A DNA stretch of 64,000 nucleotides, taken from NCBI GenBank assembly GCA_016182965.1, contig JACPFM010000129.1:1366-65365 (forward strand). Direction: 5' to 3'. The stretch comes from Deltaproteobacteria bacterium. Its GTDB lineage: Bacteria > Myxococcota_A > Polyangia > Polyangiales > JADJMO01. Numbering within the stretch: position 1 is the stretch's first letter; every line of letters begins with the position of its first letter. Of this stretch, positions 1,240-57,056 are shown piece by piece. Made by a program: the position numbers and the translations under genes. The notes under the pieces were generated by a model. It made no database searches and was not told the DNA's origin. It saw only the letters and a list, made by a program, of their open reading frames with translations.

Positions 1240-4200
1240 TCAAGCGGCGCGACGTCGTCGCGCGGCCGCCAACAGGACGAGCGCGAGGACCGGGAGCGCC
1301 ACGGCGCCGCCCGGCCGCTTGTCGGCCGACATCGCGCAGCCGCCGTCGTCCTCCGGCGGCGGGAGCGCGACGCAGGTCTTGCTCGGGAGGTCGCAGAGAT
1401 ACCCGCGCGCGCAGTCGTCGCTCGAGGTGCAGCTCGTGCTGCACGCGCCGAACGCGGGCTCGCAGAGGTAGGGACCGCACTCGAAGGGGACCGCATCGTC
1501 GGTCGCGCACTTGCCGCCCGGTCCGGGGCAGTACGCCGGTCCGACACCGCTCGTCGCACCCGTGCAGCGATTGCGCGCGCACATCGTGCCCTGACCGGCG
1601 CCGATGCACTGCGAATCGGGGCCGCACGTGCCCACGCACGAAAGCGCTGCGCCGCACTCGTTCTTCAGGTCGACGCCGATCGGCTCGGGCGTGCATTTCC
1701 CCGGGCTCGTCAGCAAGGCGCACGAGTGGCAGCGGTCGGTGCACGGCGAGTCGCAGCACACGCCTTCGACGCAGTTTCCGCTCGCGCACTCACTGCCCTT
1801 GGTGCAGCGCTGGAACCCCGCGGCCACCGTGGGCGTCGCGCCCCAGTTCGGCGCGGGCGCCTCGGCGACCGCATCTGTCGGCGGCGCGCCGTCGGTGGAG
1901 GCGTCCGCGCCGGCGTCGGAACACCCGGGGACGCTCGTGCACACGCCCACCGAGCCGGGGACGTTGCACGACGAGCACGCGTCGGAGCATGCGGTCGTGC
2001 AGCACACGCCGCCCTCGCAGAAGCCGGTGGCGCACGCGTCTGGCGAGGAGCAGGGATCGCCCTGCTTCTTCCGCTTCGCGCACGCGCCCGCCTCGCAGAA
2101 CATGCCCGAGACGCAGTCGGCCGCGGTGGCGCAGGAGGTCTTGCATCCGGTCGCGCCGCACGCGTACGGGGCGCAGTCGATCGGGAGGGGCGTGGGATCG
2201 CACGCTCCCTTGCCGTCGCAGAAGGCGGCGCCGGTCGACGTCCCGCCGACGCAGGTCGCGGCCGTGCACACCGTCGACGTCGACGGATAGCTGCACCCGG
2301 TCAGCGCTCCGTCGCAGGTGCCCGCGCACGTCCCGGTGCCGGTGCACGCGACACGACCGCCGCGCGGCGCGCCTTTGACCAGCGTGCACGAGCCTGCGTT
2401 CCCCGGCTCGTTGCACGACTCGCACTGGCCGGTGCACGCGGTCGCGCAGCACACGCCGTCGACGCAGAACCCGCTGGCGCACGCACCGGGCGCGTAGCAG
2501 GTACCGCCCTTGGCGATGCCGTCGCCCCAGATCTCTGCGGTGCTCGCGACCGTGGAGCCCACCGTCCCGCCGGTGATCAACGCCGCCCCGCCCGGAAGCG
2601 GCGCCATCGCTGCGCGCAGGCGCTCCGCCGCGAGCGCGCCCGCGGAGGACCACTTCCCGGAGGCGACGTCGTAGAGGTAGGTGGCCGTCTCGGGCGTGGT
2701 CGAGGAATCGGCGGCGACCCCGCCCGCGATGAGGATGCGGCTCGTCGTGAGCGCCGCGCCTGCCGCTCCCAGCTTCGGCCCGGGCATCGCGTTGGCGGCG
2801 CCGAAGGCCCCACCCGTCGGGCTGAACATCTCGGCCGACGACACGATCGTGGAGGCGCTGAGGATACGCCCGCCGGCGACGAGGACCCGACCGTCGGCGA
2901 GCCCGACGTACGCGGCGAACGAGCGCCCGGCGGACAACGCCGGCGCCGCCGCGAACTGGTTGGTGGCGCCGTCGTAGACGTCGCCGGTCGAGTCGTTCTC
3001 GTTGTCGCTCCCGACGAGCAGCACGCGATTGGTCCCGAACCCGAAGGCGGCCCCGCGCGCGTGGTAGCTCGACGCGGCGTTGGTCACCGCCGTCGTCGTG
3101 CTCTTGGTCGCGTCCCACACCTCCGCGTCGAGGAGGTGACCGTGGCTCACGGCGTCGATGCCCGCCGCCACGAGCACCGCTCCGCTCGGCGACAAGAGCG
3201 CCGACACGTGGGAATAACGCTGCACCGAGAGCGGCGCGCCGGCGGACCAGACATCCGTGGCCGGATCGTAGACCTCGACGGTCGACGTCGCCGTGGGGTA
3301 CCCGGTGAGCGCCCCGGTCGCGCCTCCGAACACCGCGACCTTCCCCGAGGCCAACACCGTCGCAGAGTGAAGCGTGCGAGACGTCGCCGTCGCCTTGGCG
3401 ATCGTCCAGGTGCGCGTGACCGGATCGAAGATCTCGGCCGCGCTCAGCACCGACGAGCCGAAGCTCTCGCCGCCGACCACCAGGACCCTGCCGGATGCGA
3501 TCACCGACGCGGTGTGATCGGCGCGGGCGAAGGCCATCGACGTCGGCGGGCCCCACGCCGGATCGACGGCGATCGGGAACGACGCGCCGGCGGCGGCGAC
3601 CTCGGCCTCGAGCACGCGCGCGGAGCCTTCGCCGACGAGCCGCGGCTGGAGGTCGATCCGGCGATGGCTCGCGTCGACGGCGAACCACGGTTCGCTGCGC
3701 AGGCGCGCGACGCCGTCGCGGTCGAGCACCTCGACGGCTCCCATGCGGACGCGCACGTCGCGCGCGGCCGGACCGAGGCGCACGCGATAGCGCAGGGTCG
3801 TCGTCGCCTTGGCCGACCGCAGCAGGCGCAGCTCCTCGACGTGCCCGCGCGACGCCGACATCACCACGTCGACGTCGGGACGCGCTTCGGAGAACACCAG
3901 CGCGCCCTCCACGGGCGCGGCGACGACGGGCGCGTCGCCGTCGGCGGCGACCTCGATCCAGAGATCGTCGCTGACCCCGAGCCGCATCGGCCCGCCGGCG
4001 CGCGACGGGAGCCGCGCGAAGAACCCGGTGCGCAGCTCGCGCACGTCGACGAACCCGGGCCCGCCGCCTCGCGCCGGCGGCTCGTCGGCGGTGACGCGAT
4101 ACCCGTCGCCGACGCGCACGAGCGGAAGCCCGACGACGCGCGGGGCGATCTGCGGATAGCTCCTCAACAGCTCCACGGTCGCCCGCGCGACCGACCCGCC

Positions 4201-4332
4201 GCCGGTGGGACCCGATCGCGTACGCTCGGAAGACGAGCAGGCGACGATCGCGATGGACGCGATCAATGGATGAACGGCTCGCACGCAACCTCCCGCGGGG
4301 CCTCGGCCCTCGACGAAGAGTAGTCGAAGCAC
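1240..4332 (-). CDS. Kelch-repeat and Cys-rich surface protein with MYXO-CTERM-like tail
   Basis: Lipobox IVAC; Kelch repeats (HTASVIASGRVLVVGG, HSATVLASGKVAVFGG); CASGFCVDGVCC repeats; C-terminal GGC + hydrophobic helix + RRRR. Start uncertain. Confidence 0.8.
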   Translation of the reverse strand: MLRLLFVEGRGPAGGCVRAVHPLIASIAIVACSSSERTRSGPTGGGSVARATVELLRSYPQIAPRVVGLPLVRVGDGYRVTADEPPARGGGPGFVDVRELRTGFFARLPSRAGGPMRLGVSDDLWIEVAADGDAPVVAAPVEGALVFSEARPDVDVVMSASRGHVEELRLLRSAKATTTLRYRVRLGPAARDVRVRMGAVEVLDRDGVARLRSEPWFAVDASHRRIDLQPRLVGEGSARVLEAEVAAAGASFPIAVDPAWGPPTSMAFARADHTASVIASGRVLVVGGESFGSSVLSAAEIFDPVTRTWTIAKATATSRTLHSATVLASGKVAVFGGATGALTGYPTATSTVEVYDPATDVWSAGAPLSVQRYSHVSALLSPSGAVLVAAGIDAVSHGHLLDAEVWDATKSTTTAVTNAASSYHARGAAFGFGTNRVLLVGSDNENDSTGDVYDGATNQFAAAPALSAGRSFAAYVGLADGRVLVAGGRILSASTIVSSAEMFSPTGGAFGAANAMPGPKLGAAGAALTTSRILIAGGVAADSSTTPETATYLYDVASGKWSSAGALAAERLRAAMAPLPGGAALITGGTVGSTVASTAEIWGDGIAKGGTCYAPGACASGFCVDGVCCATACTGQCESCNEPGNAGSCTLVKGAPRGGRVACTGTGTCAGTCDGALTGCSYPSTSTVCTAATCVGGTSTGAAFCDGKGACDPTPLPIDCAPYACGATGCKTSCATAADCVSGMFCEAGACAKRKKQGDPCSSPDACATGFCEGGVCCTTACSDACSSCNVPGSVGVCTSVPGCSDAGADASTDGAPPTDAVAEAPAPNWGATPTVAAGFQRCTKGSECASGNCVEGVCCDSPCTDRCHSCALLTSPGKCTPEPIGVDLKNECGAALSCVGTCGPDSQCIGAGQGTMCARNRCTGATSGVGPAYCPGPGGKCATDDAVPFECGPYLCEPAFGACSTSCTSSDDCARGYLCDLPSKTCVALPPPEDDGGCAMSADKRPGGAVALPVLALVLLAAARRRRAA

Positions 4333-4522
4333 GAGCCGGACAAAGCGGAAAAATCGGCGCGTGCGCCGAGCTTCCGAGCTCGGAGCTCGCGCGCGTCGGA
4401 AGCGGGTCGCGACCTCGACGAGGCGGCATGAGCGAGCCTGCGCACGATTCGACGACGCTCACTGCGCGGCCTCGACGCCGCGGTGGAAGAGGCGATCGCG
4501 TTGATGCTCTAATCGCCCGCCG

Positions 4523-6004
4523 ATGCGGCTCTCCATCCGCGGCGTGCGCAAGGCGTTCGAGGCGACGGTCGCCCTCTCGGCGGTCGACCTCGACCTCGCG
4601 CCGGGGGAGGTCCACGCGGTCCTCGGCGAGAACGGCGCCGGCAAGAGCACGTTGATGGCGATCCTCGCGGGGGCGATCGCGCCCGACGGCGGCGCGATCA
4701 CGCTCGACGGAGCGCCCTACGCCCCGAAGACGCCGCGTCAGGCGCAGGACGCCGGCGTGGCGATCGTTCACCAGGAGCTGTCGCTGTGCCCGCACCTGAC
4801 CGTCGAGGAGAACGTCCTCCTCGGGCGCGAGCCGACGCGCTTCGGTCTGGTCGACGTGGCCGCGGGTCGGGCGCGGGTGCGCGCCGCCCTCGAGCGGGTC
4901 GGCGCGGCCTCCGTCGATCCGCGCACGCGGGCCGGCGAGCTGCCTTCGGCGGCGCAGCAGCTGGTCGAGATCGCGCGCACGCTGGCGCACGAGCAGCCGC
5001 GGGTGCTGATCCTCGACGAGCCGACGTCGAGCCTCGGCGGAGCCGACGCCGAGCGCCTGCTCTCGCTCGTGCGGGAGCTGCGCGATCGCGGTGTATCGAT
5101 CCTCTATGTTTCGCACTTCCTCGAGGAGATCGAGCGGGTGTGCGATCGCTTCACCGTGCTCCGCGACGGCGCGACGGTCGGCGCCGGGCGCATCGGCGAG
5201 GTCGACGTAGACGGCCTGGTCACCATGATGGCCGGCCGCACGGTCGAGCGCCTCTTCGAGCGACGTCTCGAGGGCGGGCGCCGCGCGCCCGGCGAGACGC
5301 TCCTCGACGTGCGCGCGCTCTCCGGCGCGCCGCGGCCCGATCAGGCGTCGTTCGCCGTCCGCCGCGGCGAGGTGCTCGGCGTCGCCGGCCTCGTCGGCGC
5401 CGGCCGCACCGAGCTGCTCCGCGCGATCTTCGGGCTCGATCGCGTGGTGTCGGGCGAGGTCCGGGTCGGCGCCTGGATGGGGCGCGGCCCTCGCTCGCCG
5501 GCCGAGTCGCTGCGGCGCGACGTCGGCCTGCTGAGCGAGGACCGCAAGCGCGAGGGGCTCGCGCTCGGGCGCTCGGTTTCGGAGAACGTCACCCTCTCGA
5601 AGCTGCCCGCGATCGTGCGCCGCGGCGACGTCACGCGCGCGACGCGCACCTGGGTCGAGCGCCTGGGCATCCGCGTCGCCGACGTCGACGCGCCCGTGTC
5701 GCACCTGTCGGGCGGCAACCAGCAGAAGGTCGCGCTTGCGCGCCTGCTCCACCACGACGTCGACGTGCTCCTGCTCGACGAGCCGACGCGCGGGATCGAC
5801 GTGCGCAGCAAGGCGGAGATCTACGCCACCATCGACGGCCTCGCCGCAGCGGGGAAGGCGATCGTCGTGGTCTCGAGCTGGCTGCCCGAGCTGCTCGGCC
5901 TCTGCGATCGCATCGCGGTCATGCGGCGCGGCCGGCTGGGCGAGGCGCGCCCGACCGAATCCTGGACCGAGCACGACCTCTTGAGGGAGGCTCTGGGCGC
6001 ATGA
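4523..6004 (+). CDS. Sugar ABC transporter ATP-binding protein (RbsA/MglA-like)
   Basis: GENGAGKST Walker A, two ABC domains, LSGGNQQKV, DEPTRGID. Confidence 0.95.
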   Translation: MRLSIRGVRKAFEATVALSAVDLDLAPGEVHAVLGENGAGKSTLMAILAGAIAPDGGAITLDGAPYAPKTPRQAQDAGVAIVHQELSLCPHLTVEENVLLGREPTRFGLVDVAAGRARVRAALERVGAASVDPRTRAGELPSAAQQLVEIARTLAHEQPRVLILDEPTSSLGGADAERLLSLVRELRDRGVSILYVSHFLEEIERVCDRFTVLRDGATVGAGRIGEVDVDGLVTMMAGRTVERLFERRLEGGRRAPGETLLDVRALSGAPRPDQASFAVRRGEVLGVAGLVGAGRTELLRAIFGLDRVVSGEVRVGAWMGRGPRSPAESLRRDVGLLSEDRKREGLALGRSVSENVTLSKLPAIVRRGDVTRATRTWVERLGIRVADVDAPVSHLSGGNQQKVALARLLHHDVDVLLLDEPTRGIDVRSKAEIYATIDGLAAAGKAIVVVSSWLPELLGLCDRIAVMRRGRLGEARPTESWTEHDLLREALGA

Positions 6005-53344: not shown

Positions 53345-56281
53345 TCAGGGCTTCAGCGAGCAGGCGAGCGGGCGCAGCGAGAACTTCCCGGCGTCGTCCG
53401 GCAGGCGCTTCAGGAGGAACGCGTGGCCGGGATCGTCCGCCGGGACGTACGCGTACCAGTCGTCGTCGCCGACGTTCGCCGTCACGAGCATCGCGTCGGT
53501 GCACGCCGCGCCGTCCCGCCCGATGCGCACGTAGTTGCCATGCGTGGTCAGCTCGCTCGGCAGATCGGCGCCGGTCAGCGAGAGCTTCACCGGGCGCCAC
53601 TCGGGGCCGCTCGCGAACATGCGGAGCCCGGCCTTCGTCTTGGCCGCGCACGGCACGAAGGCCTTCGATCCGCTCGGCGTCGTCGCGCTCGACAGGCGCA
53701 GCGCGGCCGGCGGATCGGGGGTGATCGCGTCGAACGGGATCATGCCGCGCGGATCGATGAAGGCGGACGAGGTCTCGCCGAGCCCGCTCGCGAGGACCAG
53801 CGCCGGCTTGCCGCCGACCAGCTGCAGCGCCGCCTCCTCGCCGAGGGTCCACACGGCGCGGCTCCAGGTCTTCCCGAGGTCCTCGCTCGAGATCAGCGCG
53901 ACGCTCTCGAAGCGCTGCTGCGCGAGGATGATCCGCTTGCCGATCTTCGAGCCGGCGTTGAAGCCGAACGCATCGGCGCCCGTCGGGCGCGCGAAGGTCT
54001 CGACCTTCCCGTCGTCGTGCACGAAGTAGATCGGCGACTCGCCGGTGTGGGCGAGGAACAAGAGGCCGCCGTCGACGATCTCGGTCAGCGCGCTCGGCGC
54101 CACGCGGCCGACGCGGAACGGCTTCACCTTCGGCAGCTTGGCCTTGTGGACCTTGCCCTGGGCGGCGGCGTACCACGCGAGATCGACGTCGACCGGGTTG
54201 TATTTCTTGCCGCCCTCTTCGTCGAACTTCACCTCGGTGGAGTAGGAGTAGCGCGCGAGCACCACCCCGGCGGCGGTGGTCCAGTCCCAGTCGCGCACGG
54301 TGCGCGGCCCGTTGGCCTTGGGAGGCGGCGGCAAGAGCTGCACGAGCGAAGGCGGCGCGCTGCCCTTCACCACGGTCAGGCCCGTCGTCTTGTCGTCGTC
54401 GCCGACCGGCGCGACGAGGCGCACGTCGCCGTCGAGCGCGCCGCGCGTCTCGAGCCAGAGCTGACCGGACGCCTTCTTCGGCGGACCGCTCGGCGCGCAC
54501 TGAATCGCGATCGGAGGGCCGGCAGCGGCCGGCGCGTCGTGCGGCGTGTCGCTCGGGTCCTTGATCGGCTGCGTGGTCGCCGCGATCAGCGCCTTCTCGG
54601 GATCGGGGAGCTCCCAACCGACGCGCACCGACCCGCCCTGCAGGCACCCCGACGGCGCGCATGCGACAGGCCCCGTCGCACCGAGCGCGACCTTCGTCCA
54701 ATGCTCGCCGCCGTCGGCCGTCTCCCACGCTTGCTCGTCGCCCCAGGCGTAGCCGCGGTCGCCCGCGAGATCGACGCCGTGCACGTCGAACGGCAGGTAC
54801 AGCGTGGGCGCCAGCTTGCCCTCGGGCGACAGCCGCAGGAGCCGCCACGGGGAGGCGTAGACGAGGCGCAGCCCGCCCTTGGAGTCGAGGGTCGTCGCCG
54901 CGGGGCGACCGGGCAGCGAGAGGTCGATCTTCGTCAGCTTGCCGTCGCGCTTGCCCGTGAAGACCTTCAAGGTGCCGGCCTCGTCGCCGAGCACGAAGAC
55001 GCGGTCGCGCGCGGCGTCGACCTCCGCGCTCGCGAGGCGGAGCTTCGGCGGCAGATCGAGCGGCTGCCAGTCCTTGGCGCCGAGCTTGGCGCGCGCGGGC
55101 GAGCACGGACCCGCGATGGTGGTGCACAGCTCGCCGACCGCGACCCACCCCGCGCCGGCGAGCACGCGGAACCCCGTGCCCTCGTGCCCTTCGAGCGCGC
55201 CGATCGGTTGCCACGTCTTGCCGTCGTCGGTCGTGCGGAACAGGCGCGAGGTGCTCGGATCGGCGTCGGGCTCGTGCAGGTCGACGACGACGTCGCCGCC
55301 CGAACCGGCGACGCGCACGCGCGTGAGCGCCGAGGCCGCCGTCGCGAGCGTCCACGGCTCGCCCGTCTTTCCGTCGAACGCGCCGACGGCCACCGTGATC
55401 TTCTTGCGGTGCGACACGACGTCGAGCGTCTCGACGACGTGCACGATTCGATCGCCGATCACGGTGCGCGTGCCCGCGGGCGGCGGCTTGGGAGCGCCGG
55501 TGTCGGCCTTGGCGAGCTCCGCGAACGAGGTCGCGATCTCGAGCTTCCGCGGCGAGCCGCCGAGCTTCGCCATCTTGTCGACGATCGCGCCCTCGAGCCA
55601 CAAGTCGTCGTTCGCGTCGACCTTCAGCGACGACGCGCCGATGCCCGGCGTCGCCAGCGGCGCGAAGGTCGCGCCGTCGTCGGCCGAGTACAACACCCGC
55701 TGCGGGTGGATCAGCACGAGGATCTCGCCCCGCGCGTTCGCCGCGACCGAGTGCACCACCTCGCCGGGCCCGACCGGCAGCTTGCTCTTGCTCCAAGCGG
55801 CGCCGGTGGAGCGATGCAGCGTGCCGTCCTCCTCCGCGCCGACGATCGCCGACTTCCCCATCGCGAACCTCGTCGGTCCGCTCGTCTTCGGCGCGGCGCG
55901 GGTGCTGGTCGGCGGGCCGAGCGGCTCGTCGGCGACGAACACCGTGCCGTCCTCGCCGAGGAGCGACCAGCGCGTGCCGTCGCGGCGAGCCCCGACGAGG
56001 TGTGACGCGAGGAGGAACGAGGACGCGCTGACGGTGCCGTCGGACTTCAGGAGCCAGCGTCGGCCGTGCGAGCCGACCTGGAAGATCCCCTGCGCGCCGA
56101 GATCGACCTGGGCCGCCGCGACGGTGACGCCGCTGCCCGTGAGCAGCCACCGGGCGCGCGCGGGCGCGGGCTTGGGCGCGGGCGGGGCGGCGCTGGACTT
56201 CGGCGCGACCGCGACCTTCGGCTCGGGAGCGGCCGGCGAACACGCGACAAGGAGGACCATCGACGTGAGAAGCGCGCGCAT
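53345..56281 (-). CDS. Large lipoprotein with BNR/Asp-box repeats
   Basis: Lipobox LVAC; SADDGATF, TTDDGKTW, TADGGEHW, SEDLGKTW Asp-boxes. Confidence 0.75.
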   Translation of the reverse strand: MRALLTSMVLLVACSPAAPEPKVAVAPKSSAAPPAPKPAPARARWLLTGSGVTVAAAQVDLGAQGIFQVGSHGRRWLLKSDGTVSASSFLLASHLVGARRDGTRWSLLGEDGTVFVADEPLGPPTSTRAAPKTSGPTRFAMGKSAIVGAEEDGTLHRSTGAAWSKSKLPVGPGEVVHSVAANARGEILVLIHPQRVLYSADDGATFAPLATPGIGASSLKVDANDDLWLEGAIVDKMAKLGGSPRKLEIATSFAELAKADTGAPKPPPAGTRTVIGDRIVHVVETLDVVSHRKKITVAVGAFDGKTGEPWTLATAASALTRVRVAGSGGDVVVDLHEPDADPSTSRLFRTTDDGKTWQPIGALEGHEGTGFRVLAGAGWVAVGELCTTIAGPCSPARAKLGAKDWQPLDLPPKLRLASAEVDAARDRVFVLGDEAGTLKVFTGKRDGKLTKIDLSLPGRPAATTLDSKGGLRLVYASPWRLLRLSPEGKLAPTLYLPFDVHGVDLAGDRGYAWGDEQAWETADGGEHWTKVALGATGPVACAPSGCLQGGSVRVGWELPDPEKALIAATTQPIKDPSDTPHDAPAAAGPPIAIQCAPSGPPKKASGQLWLETRGALDGDVRLVAPVGDDDKTTGLTVVKGSAPPSLVQLLPPPPKANGPRTVRDWDWTTAAGVVLARYSYSTEVKFDEEGGKKYNPVDVDLAWYAAAQGKVHKAKLPKVKPFRVGRVAPSALTEIVDGGLLFLAHTGESPIYFVHDDGKVETFARPTGADAFGFNAGSKIGKRIILAQQRFESVALISSEDLGKTWSRAVWTLGEEAALQLVGGKPALVLASGLGETSSAFIDPRGMIPFDAITPDPPAALRLSSATTPSGSKAFVPCAAKTKAGLRMFASGPEWRPVKLSLTGADLPSELTTHGNYVRIGRDGAACTDAMLVTANVGDDDWYAYVPADDPGHAFLLKRLPDDAGKFSLRPLACSLKP

Positions 56282-56339
56282 TGGCCGAGGCTATCCGAGG
56301 TCGACGCATGCGCGCGAGATGGTGCTACGCTCGGGGGTC

Positions 56340-57056
56340 ATGGATGTCCGGGCGCGTAGGTCGGCCCTCGGCACGATGGCGGCGATGGCGGCCATCGCGA
56401 CAGGCGCGGCGATCGCGCTCGCCGCGTGCGGCGGCGACGACGCCCGCGCCCTGCCGCCGCCCGCCACCTTCGGCGACGCGTCGACCGACACGGGCACCAA
56501 GAGCAAGCCCGACGCGCGCGCCGACGGTCTGCTCGCCGACGCGTCCGACGCGTCCGACGAGTCCGGCGGGCTCGGGTGCGCGCCCGACAAGAACTGCGTC
56601 GGCGCGACGATGCCGACCTGGCAGCTGCAGGACTTCCAGCCGAAGAGCCCGCGCTACGGCCACACCTACGGGCTCGAGGCGTTCAAGGGCAAGGTGACGG
56701 TGGTCGCCTTGTTATCCGGCTGGTGAGGGTTCTGTCGAACCCAGGCGTCCAGGTTGGACGTCATGCAGAAAGAGCTGAAGGCGGCGGGGCGTGACATCGC
56801 GTTCCTCGCGGTGAACTCCGCCGACTCGTTCACCAACCAGACCGAGCTCGCCGCGTCGGCCGAGTTCCCCATGTTCCAGGACACCGACCCGGTCGGCGCC
56901 TGGAAGATGCACGGCGGCGGCAAGGACGATCTCTACGTCTACGGCAGCGACGGCAAGCTCGTGCGCTACCTGCCGTACGGCGGCGAGGTCGACACCAACC
57001 TGTCCGATCCCGTCGCCTACGAAGGCGTGAAGAAGATCGTCGTCGACGCCAAGTGA
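56340..57056 (+). CDS. Thioredoxin/AhpC-TSA-like selenoprotein lipoprotein (Sec at UGA 56724-56726)
   Basis: One frame interrupted only by TGA: FKGKVTVVALLSGW-U-GFCRTQ; continues into ORF 56754..57056; lipobox LAAC; start may be 56319. Confidence 0.85.
56745..56761 (+). promoter_or_regulatory. Putative bacterial SECIS element
   Basis: GCGTCCA-GGT-TGGACGT hairpin with a G-containing apical loop about 25 nt 3' of the UGA. Confidence 0.7.

Follow-up and report, generated by a model that had tools for sequence, protein, structure and literature searches.

A probable selenocysteine codon at the active site of an exported thioredoxin-fold lipoprotein of a Polyangiales bacterium

The 64,000-nucleotide stretch of DNA analyzed here (positions 1,366 to 65,365 of contig JACPFM010000129.1, Deltaproteobacteria bacterium assembly GCA_016182965.1; at its full length referred to below as the window) contains an in-frame TGA codon at 56724-56726 on the + strand, and the question that this locus raises is whether the codon ends a gene or encodes selenocysteine (Sec) within one. 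Gene calling with translation table 11 yielded two + strand open reading frames (ORFs) in the same frame, 54879..56726 and 56754..57056, and reproduced the split that a first-pass annotation of the sequence had described. When TGA 56724-56726 is read through from the ATG at 56340, the frame runs on to 57056, as that annotation had also proposed, and gives a protein of 238 residues with the local sequence S-G-W-U-G-F-C-R around residue 129, in which the TGA takes the place of the first Cys of a W-C-x-x-C motif. Every element that the first-pass annotation had named was present where it had been placed. TGA is a normal stop here, because it is the terminal codon of four Pfam-supported neighboring genes and of the selenoprotein gene itself; the G+C content of the window is 71.7%.

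It is almost certain that the internal stop codon specifies selenocysteine and that this residue occupies the active site of an exported redox lipoprotein. Comparison with relatives makes it very likely that the locus is a real selenoprotein gene, in which the UGA would be decoded by SelB and a selenocysteine insertion sequence (SECIS) and the product would be an exported lipoprotein with a UxxC thioredoxin-fold center. The features around the recoding site are as follows.

56340 to 57056, + strand: predicted complete selenoprotein coding sequence of 238 residues, ending in the stop TGA at 57054-57056; the frame is uninterrupted when TGA 56724 is taken as a sense codon
56340, + strand: probable ATG start, with an alternative in-frame ATG at 56319
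56724 to 56726, + strand: UGA codon, predicted to be read as selenocysteine U129, position 1 of the U-G-F-C132 redox motif
56733 to 56735, + strand: TGT codon of C132, second half of the U-G-F-C center
56727 to 56742, + strand: hairpin 1, GGGTTC / TGTC / GAACCC, with a 6-bp stem and a 4-nt loop, adjoining the UGA
56744 to 56762, + strand: hairpin 2, candidate SECIS or SelB-binding element, with an 8-bp stem and a GGU triloop at 56752-56754

The codon is conserved among relatives of the gene. When 41 genomes (the assembly containing the window plus 40 relatives) were searched in all six frames, eight clear homologues were detected in five same-family genomes; these were 43 to 63% identical, with exactly one TGA inside each match, and the weaker matches contained zero TGA codons. 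The orthologues, 55 to 63% identical over 183 to 237 residues, had exactly one TGA apiece. When the window gene was aligned with the eight homologues, the TGA shared one column in all nine genes, the surrounding consensus was V-T-V-[VA]-A-L-L-x-x-[WS]-U-G-F-C-[RQ], and the alignment extended 109 to 112 residues beyond the codon. Eleven further Sec-form genes (L053, L054, L056-L060, L062, L063, L065, and L071) were detected in species-representative genomes and metagenome contigs, and the TGA was in the identical column in 20 of 20 Sec-form genes (16 distinct downstream sequences).

Other members of the family have Cys at this position, as the first-pass annotation had anticipated. Eight relatives (L055, L061, L064, and L066-L070) carry TGC or TGT in the TGA column, the library proteins P0002-P0004 are full-length Cys forms, and most of the full-length library matches also carry Cys there. 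The 28 genes reduce to 23 distinct downstream segments, 16 Sec-form and 7 Cys-form; these counts exclude L072 and L073, which are Cys forms cut by contig ends, and the distant L074 and L075.

If the TGA were a genuine stop, the locus would be either a decaying pseudogene or a gene for a 128-residue lipoprotein stub, with the 100-codon ORF at 56754-57056 separate or untranslated. The table-11 split matches such a reading, and databases contain such pieces: P0005-P0009 are N-terminal pieces ending in ...S-G-W or ...A-S-W, C-terminal pieces of about 100 amino acids are also present in the public protein collections, and 17 library matches begin no earlier than profile position 50, as would be expected of the remnant of a split Sec form. 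The same stubs and pieces bear out the first-pass claim that standard annotation misses the gene. However, the stub would end in the middle of the thioredoxin fold, one residue before the active site, and the Cys-form relatives are continuous proteins. Furthermore, 20 genes at about 45 to 76% identity retain both the TGA and the reading frame after it, and synonymous changes continue beyond the codon. Over the 109 codons after the TGA, the window gene and L056 have 64 identical codons, 16 synonymous differences, and 29 nonsynonymous differences, and the four orthologue comparisons gave 15 to 17 synonymous and 29 to 48 nonsynonymous differences. The codon differences after the TGA resemble those in the 42 codons before it. 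Thus, it is very improbable that translation simply ends at 56726.

The TGA might also be an assembly or sequencing error, considering that the window comes from a metagenome-assembled genome of 226 contigs with 4.5% estimated contamination (9.6 Mb; 91% complete). However, the same codon was present in homologues from at least five other genomes and nine metagenome contigs, and a contig from a second sample was identical to the window across it. This contig of 297 nt, from the third of three groundwater runs of one study (X3), matched positions 56574-56870 exactly, including codon 56724-56726. An error has therefore already been effectively refuted. At least half of the stretch's sampled words were found in those three groundwater runs, all other runs having at most 0.12, and the other two of the three may be the source of the window DNA. 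Contigs of diverged relatives in a sediment run (X4) and a sludge metatranscriptome run (X18) also cover the codon, with no difference at 56724-56726 among those listed. The RNA contig from the sludge is not evidence of expression, because all of these data are contigs.

The first-pass annotation had reported two hairpins 3' of the UGA, and both are present, hairpin 2 extending beyond the 56745-56761 originally described. The core of hairpin 2, GCGTCCA/GGT/TGGACGT at 56745-56761, is lengthened to 8 bp by outer G-C and G-U pairs, and its GGU loop begins 26 nt after the UGA. Bacterial SECIS elements are sought by bSECISearch as hairpins with a G in the apical loop, 16 to 37 nt from the UGA. In a search for GGN triloops beginning 10 to 35 nt after the codon and closed by a stem of 4 bp or more, such a hairpin was found in 16/16 distinct Sec forms, always with a GGU or GGC loop at +18 or +26, versus 1/7 distinct Cys forms (4 bp, GGA loop, +30) and 379 of 8,000 mononucleotide shuffles of the Sec segments (4.7%). 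The loop was GGU at +26 in the window's orthologue group (six distinct sequences) and GGC at +18 in the other Sec forms (nine distinct sequences).

Base pairing in this region has been maintained through compensating changes. L025 was excluded from the RNA alignments, as its first 48 nt match L024. In the orthologue alignment (A4), 90.5% of the cells are paired in the two-hairpin structure, compared to 23 to 50% when the 3' partners are slid, and 4 of the 14 pairs change on both sides, e.g., from G-C to C-G in L027. The covariation score of 0.238, compared to 0.135 in shuffles, was reached by 1 of 500 shuffles. Within this alignment, 95.8% of the cells pair in hairpin 2 and 83% in hairpin 1, and two pairs change on both sides in each (for hairpin 1, two of six: GC/CG and CG/UA). 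In the alignment of the other Sec forms (A5), the upper stem changes from U-A to G-C in three sequences and from C-G to G-C in one and two sequences; 74.8% of the cells are paired versus 31 to 45% with the 3' partners slid, and the covariation score (0.204 versus 0.094 in shuffles) was reached by 0 of 500 shuffles. The stem of hairpin 2 is written in AGG and TTG codons, which are rare in the four neighboring genes (AGG, 3 of 343 Arg codons; TTG, 9 of 248 Leu codons), and this use of rare codons points to selection on the RNA.

These results support the view that hairpin 2 behaves like a bacterial SECIS, with a G-G loop, the expected distance from the UGA, covariation, and rare codons in its stem. 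The candidate for the SECIS proposed in the first-pass annotation is hairpin 2, which is common to all of the Sec forms; hairpin 1 is not the shared feature. Hairpin 1, which is not kept in L023, is a candidate accessory or lower helix. The comparative evidence for the hairpin is much stronger than the single-sequence evidence, which is modest: the RNAfold minimum free energy structure of 56721-56785 contains both hairpins (−24.2 kcal/mol; z = −2.0).

The Leu codons located four and five codons 5' of the UGA (56709-56714) are TTG and TTA. TTA accounts for 0 of the 248 Leu codons in the four neighboring genes and is present in this stretch in five of the nine same-family genes (the window gene and L024-L027). 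It is possible that these codons cause a translational pause ahead of the recoding site or form part of an RNA structure.

The machinery for selenocysteine incorporation, which the first-pass annotation had suggested looking for, is encoded in the same assembly. A tRNA-Sec gene (selC) scored 65.1 bits against a gathering score of 47 and was also called by ARAGORN as tRNA-SeC with anticodon tca, and genes for selA (483 bits), selB (280.6 bits), and selD (350.7 bits) were detected; all four are above curated cutoffs. The selD gene (own genome G000, contig C1:28269-29216, locus L018) has one in-frame TGA inside the match, and therefore its product, selenophosphate synthetase, is probably a selenoprotein too.

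The UGA could be read through without selenium, by a near-cognate Trp or Cys tRNA, with the hairpin only slowing termination. In other systems, stable hairpins located 3' of the stop can promote read-through, and which residue is inserted is not decidable from sequence alone. However, the genome has a complete Sec pathway and a selD gene that itself contains TGA, the site is that of the nucleophilic Cys of a redox motif, with only Cys alternating with TGA, and all of the Sec forms have a G-G loop, as recognition by SelB would lead one to expect. Insertion of a residue other than selenocysteine therefore seems highly unlikely.

Several observations weigh against decoding of the UGA as selenocysteine in an exported redox protein. 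All of the evidence for selenium in the protein is comparative. The Sec-form sequences are mutually related and represent roughly five to seven lineages on the trees described below; because they are kin, counts such as 16/16 overstate their independence. The z value of the single-sequence fold is only −2.0, with 10 of 200 shuffles equally stable, and mean folding energies over the 48 nt after the codon were similar in Sec forms (−14.3 kcal/mol) and Cys forms (−13.3 kcal/mol; Mann-Whitney P = 0.36). An apical loop of 3 nt is on the small side for a SECIS, and an Rfam scan of 56600-56900 at E values up to 10 gave chance-level microRNA and small RNA matches and no family. The only NCBIfam selenoprotein model that the protein touches, NF053656, scored 70.2 bits against a cutoff of 100. 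The gene neighborhood is not conserved across the loci compared, with a BNR-repeat gene recurring only in L027 and no conserved redox partner; thus, nothing there points to a substrate or a partner.

The protein beyond the recoding site has the architecture of an exported redox lipoprotein, with the following predicted parts.

56340 to 56429, + strand: lipoprotein signal peptide with R4, R6, and R7, a hydrophobic stretch, and the lipobox L27-A-A-C30 (Cys codon TGC at 56427-56429)
56430 to 56597, + strand: low-complexity tether, residues 31 to 86, rich in Asp, Ala, Ser, and Thr and ending in a Cys pair
56577 to 56579 and 56595 to 56597, + strand: tether Cys pair C80 and C86; C-x2-C or C-x5-C before the domain recurs in homologues
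56598 to 57053, + strand: thioredoxin-fold redox domain, residues 87 to 238, SelP_N / AhpC-TSA / Redoxin-like

The signal peptide was read directly from the sequence, and the lipobox was identified with the pattern [LVI][ASTVI][GAS]C. The export and lipid anchoring claimed in the first-pass annotation are consistent with L-A-A-C30 following a charged start and a hydrophobic stretch, and a lipobox is present in 8/9 same-family homologues (the exception being L024) and in the pieces P0005-P0009. C80 and C86 may form a disulfide. In L024 (genome G006, contig C8), the TGA is retained together with the hairpin and the domain, and the N-terminal region is out of frame relative to L025 and L026, with no in-frame start followed by a plausible signal peptide and lipobox. 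This anomaly may be a frameshift or an assembly error.

An AlphaFold2 model of residues 87 to 238, built on alignment A1, had a mean predicted local distance difference test score of 94.9 and a predicted TM-score of 0.90. The modeled Sec is located between the strand at 33-39 and the helix at 44-62 (domain numbering). The best Foldseek match was the DsbE-like structure 3gl3 (E = 4e-10; TM-score normalized to the query, 0.77), followed by ResA, DsbF, and other exported thiol-disulfide oxidoreductases, with AhpC and glutathione peroxidase lower. Sequence matches in the PDB (PDI, TlpA, ResA, and CycY) were weak. Four DsbD_TM matches above the Pfam cutoff were detected in the genome, which indicates that the cell has a means of supplying the periplasm with reducing power; the selenoprotein may draw electrons from proteins of this type.

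A working model for the locus can be proposed from these features. During translation, SelB carrying Sec-tRNA(Sec) would bind the hairpin at 56744-56762, and selenocysteine would be delivered at UGA 56724-56726 in place of termination; the TGA at 57054, which has no such hairpin, would cause normal termination. The product would be a prelipoprotein, cleaved and lipidated at Cys30, with an acidic tether of about 55 residues holding the domain on the periplasmic side of the membrane. The U129-G-F-C132 center would be expected to cycle between the selenol/thiol and selenenylsulfide forms and might be recharged by a CcdA/DsbD-type membrane electron shuttle, with electrons presumably flowing toward the selenoprotein. 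The most likely function of the protein would be that of a thiol-disulfide reductase outside the cytoplasm or of a redoxin that reduces peroxides.

The protein family nearest to the domain is that of the N-terminal part of selenoprotein P. The best Pfam match was SelP_N (PF04592), with 50.9 bits against a cutoff of 23.2 (E = 1.7e-13; profile positions 8 to 124 of 234), ahead of AhpC-TSA (PF00578; 39.4 bits, cutoff 26) and Redoxin (PF08534; 36.3 bits), both of which also pass their cutoffs. Searching 1.84 billion representatives with the A1 profile yielded 1,395 proteins at E values up to 1e-3 and 116 at up to 1e-30, and most of the full-length top matches carry W-C-x-[FY]-C-type motifs. SelP_N matched 132 of the 150 family members scanned (the window protein and 149 matches).

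These matches raise the alternative that the selenoprotein has another job, the UxxC center serving mainly as a peroxidase or in the binding or handling of selenium or soft metals in the periplasm. The N-terminal part of selenoprotein P has been reported to act as a peroxidase. SelP_N is the top family match, AhpC and glutathione peroxidase folds are among the structural neighbors, and the GSHPx family matched 4 of the 150 members. However, the top structural matches are DsbE-, ResA-, and DsbF-type reductases, and the motif is of the W-C-x-x-C type found in thiol-disulfide oxidoreductases. A catalytic Thr-x-x-Cys or Arg signature of the peroxiredoxin type was not found, no search aimed at one having been made. 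Another job of this kind is considered a real but minority possibility.

One protein in the set, P0160, may further link the family to selenoprotein P. This 590-amino-acid protein had the strongest SelP_N score in the set (130.9 bits), has a long Trp-rich tail, and shares 42% identity with the window protein across a 99-residue alignment (E = 3e-23). The Trp that aligns with the Sec position is the first position of its x-x-x-C motif. Because of the SelP_N score and the Trp-rich tail, P0160 appears to be an animal selenoprotein P translated with TGA as Trp. P0160 took no supported position on the family tree (long branch, 1.35).

Sec and Cys forms are intermingled in the family. Rows of the family tree were required to cover at least 125 profile positions, with C-terminal pieces starting at position 50 or later kept if they covered at least 90, and 155 of 172 rows were kept; in a quick IQ-TREE run, 17 fragments and P0139 were also excluded and P0160 was added. 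The window protein was placed in an all-Sec clade of six rows with 98 to 99% support. Sec forms were scattered among Cys forms, with seven label changes in FastTree and five in the quick IQ-TREE run; well-supported branches force at least three Sec/Cys changes in the former and one in the latter.

The genome loci are labeled as Myxococcales, Polyangiales, Polyangiaceae, and Deltaproteobacteria metagenome-assembled genomes, plus one bin labeled Enterobacteriaceae. This bin (CAZLMW01, "uncultured Enterobacteriaceae"), which contains L053 and L054, has two Sec-form members and a Dictyostelium-type repeat protein, and its label looks wrong. Some family members have unusual architectures: P0139 (612 amino acids) has four tandem degenerate copies of the domain that lack a CxxC motif, P0149 contains a long insert rich in Cys as well as a Kazal domain at its C terminus, and P0150, the C-terminal piece of what is probably a Sec form, has an additional tail of ~230 residues. 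A look-up of the Cys form P0002 in the ESM Atlas returned Myxococcota clusters, and several of the nearest clusters (0.91 to 0.93) were AhpC/TSA-like, with phages (Uroviricota) as recorded members. As a lead only, it is possible that phages carry relatives of this redoxin.

UxxC thioredoxin-fold selenoproteins are already well known; the unusual feature here is the closeness of the family, Sec included, to the redox head of selenoprotein P. The text searched of a 2026 review of prokaryotic selenoproteomes (PMC13188914) catalogs several UxxC thioredoxin-fold families, namely, Prx-like thiol:disulfide oxidoreductase, thiol:disulfide interchange protein, Redoxin family, and UGC-containing TlpA. 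The Prx-like selenoproteins share with the window protein Sec in place of the first Cys of CxxC, a thioredoxin fold, Cys-form relatives, and a SECIS within the ORF, and the window protein has the PF00578 match and, as U-G-F-C, the UxxC motif expected of that family, a comparison made by Pfam and motif only. In contrast to what that text describes, the top-scoring family of the window protein is SelP_N; "SelP" and "PF04592" have zero occurrences in it. A literature search on SelP-like bacterial proteins, TUGYCR, and myxobacterial selenoprotein P gave nothing relevant, and bacterial homologues may be discussed by Baclaocos et al. (2019).

The best NCBIfam match of the window protein was NF053656, the "TUGYCR motif thioredoxin fold (seleno)protein," residues 91 to 236 aligning with profile positions 1 to 145 of 146 around a U-G-[FY]-C-[RQ] center. 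The motif of the window protein is G-W-U-G-F-C-R rather than T-U-G-Y-C-R, and by score and motif it would be assigned to a sister group of NF053656 and not to the family itself. With the TlpA, ResA, CcmG (DsbE), and DsbF reductases, the protein shares a fold with a central insert, a membrane tether and export, and a redox motif at the start of helix 1. However, identity with these is 15 to 20%, Sec replaces Cys, there are no cytochrome-maturation neighbors, and the score with the TlpA equivalog model NF047696 (25.5 bits) is below the cutoff of 230.

Selenoprotein P (SELENOP) shares with the window protein the SelP_N domain. Unlike SELENOP, the window protein ends at residue 238 with a single Sec and has neither a His-rich stretch nor a Sec-rich C-terminal domain. 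SELENOP is a secreted plasma protein with its SECIS in the 3' untranslated region, whereas the window protein is a predicted bacterial lipoprotein with the hairpin inside the ORF. Considering the shared fold, the identity of about 40%, and the Sec at the same active-site position, we tentatively suggest, as a possibility that is less probable than not, that, among prokaryotic proteins, this mostly myxobacterial lipoprotein family is the one most closely related to the redox head of animal selenoprotein P. In that case, the UxxC head would have descended from, or been exchanged with, a bacterial family already switching between Cys and Sec. The relation would also be closer than that to TlpA and ResA, to which the SelP N-domain is described as distantly related in a passage of Lobanov et al. 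(2008; PMC2397514).

The selenoprotein gene appears to stand alone, and the genes flanking it at other loci are unrelated. Upstream, and divergent from it, is a gene on the − strand at 53345-56281 for a 978-residue BNR/Asp-box repeat protein, which is 40% identical over about 470 residues to the product of the gene in the same position at the same-genus locus L027. Downstream is a convergent LysR regulator gene on the − strand; LysR genes are also located near L046 and L054, but with 29% identity and in different arrangements. At locus L046, a gene at 3540-4562 on the − strand, convergent with the same-genus orthologue of the selenoprotein gene and located immediately after it, encodes two cytochrome c domains fused to a rhodanese domain and is followed by a LysR regulator gene; of these two neighbors, only the LysR gene is present in the window. 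A scan for sigma-70 promoters and terminators detected nothing on the + strand.

Because standard annotation cuts this gene and its relatives in two, a set of environmental selenoproteins is invisible in databases. The gene described here would add a selenium-dependent extracytoplasmic redox protein to the Polyangiales-type myxobacteria, which are predators with large genomes. The naturally matched Sec and Cys forms of the family provide material for asking why selenium is used at an exported active site. The closeness to SelP_N would make the family a tractable bacterial model for the part of selenoprotein P that is least understood, as well as a lead on the origin of that domain.

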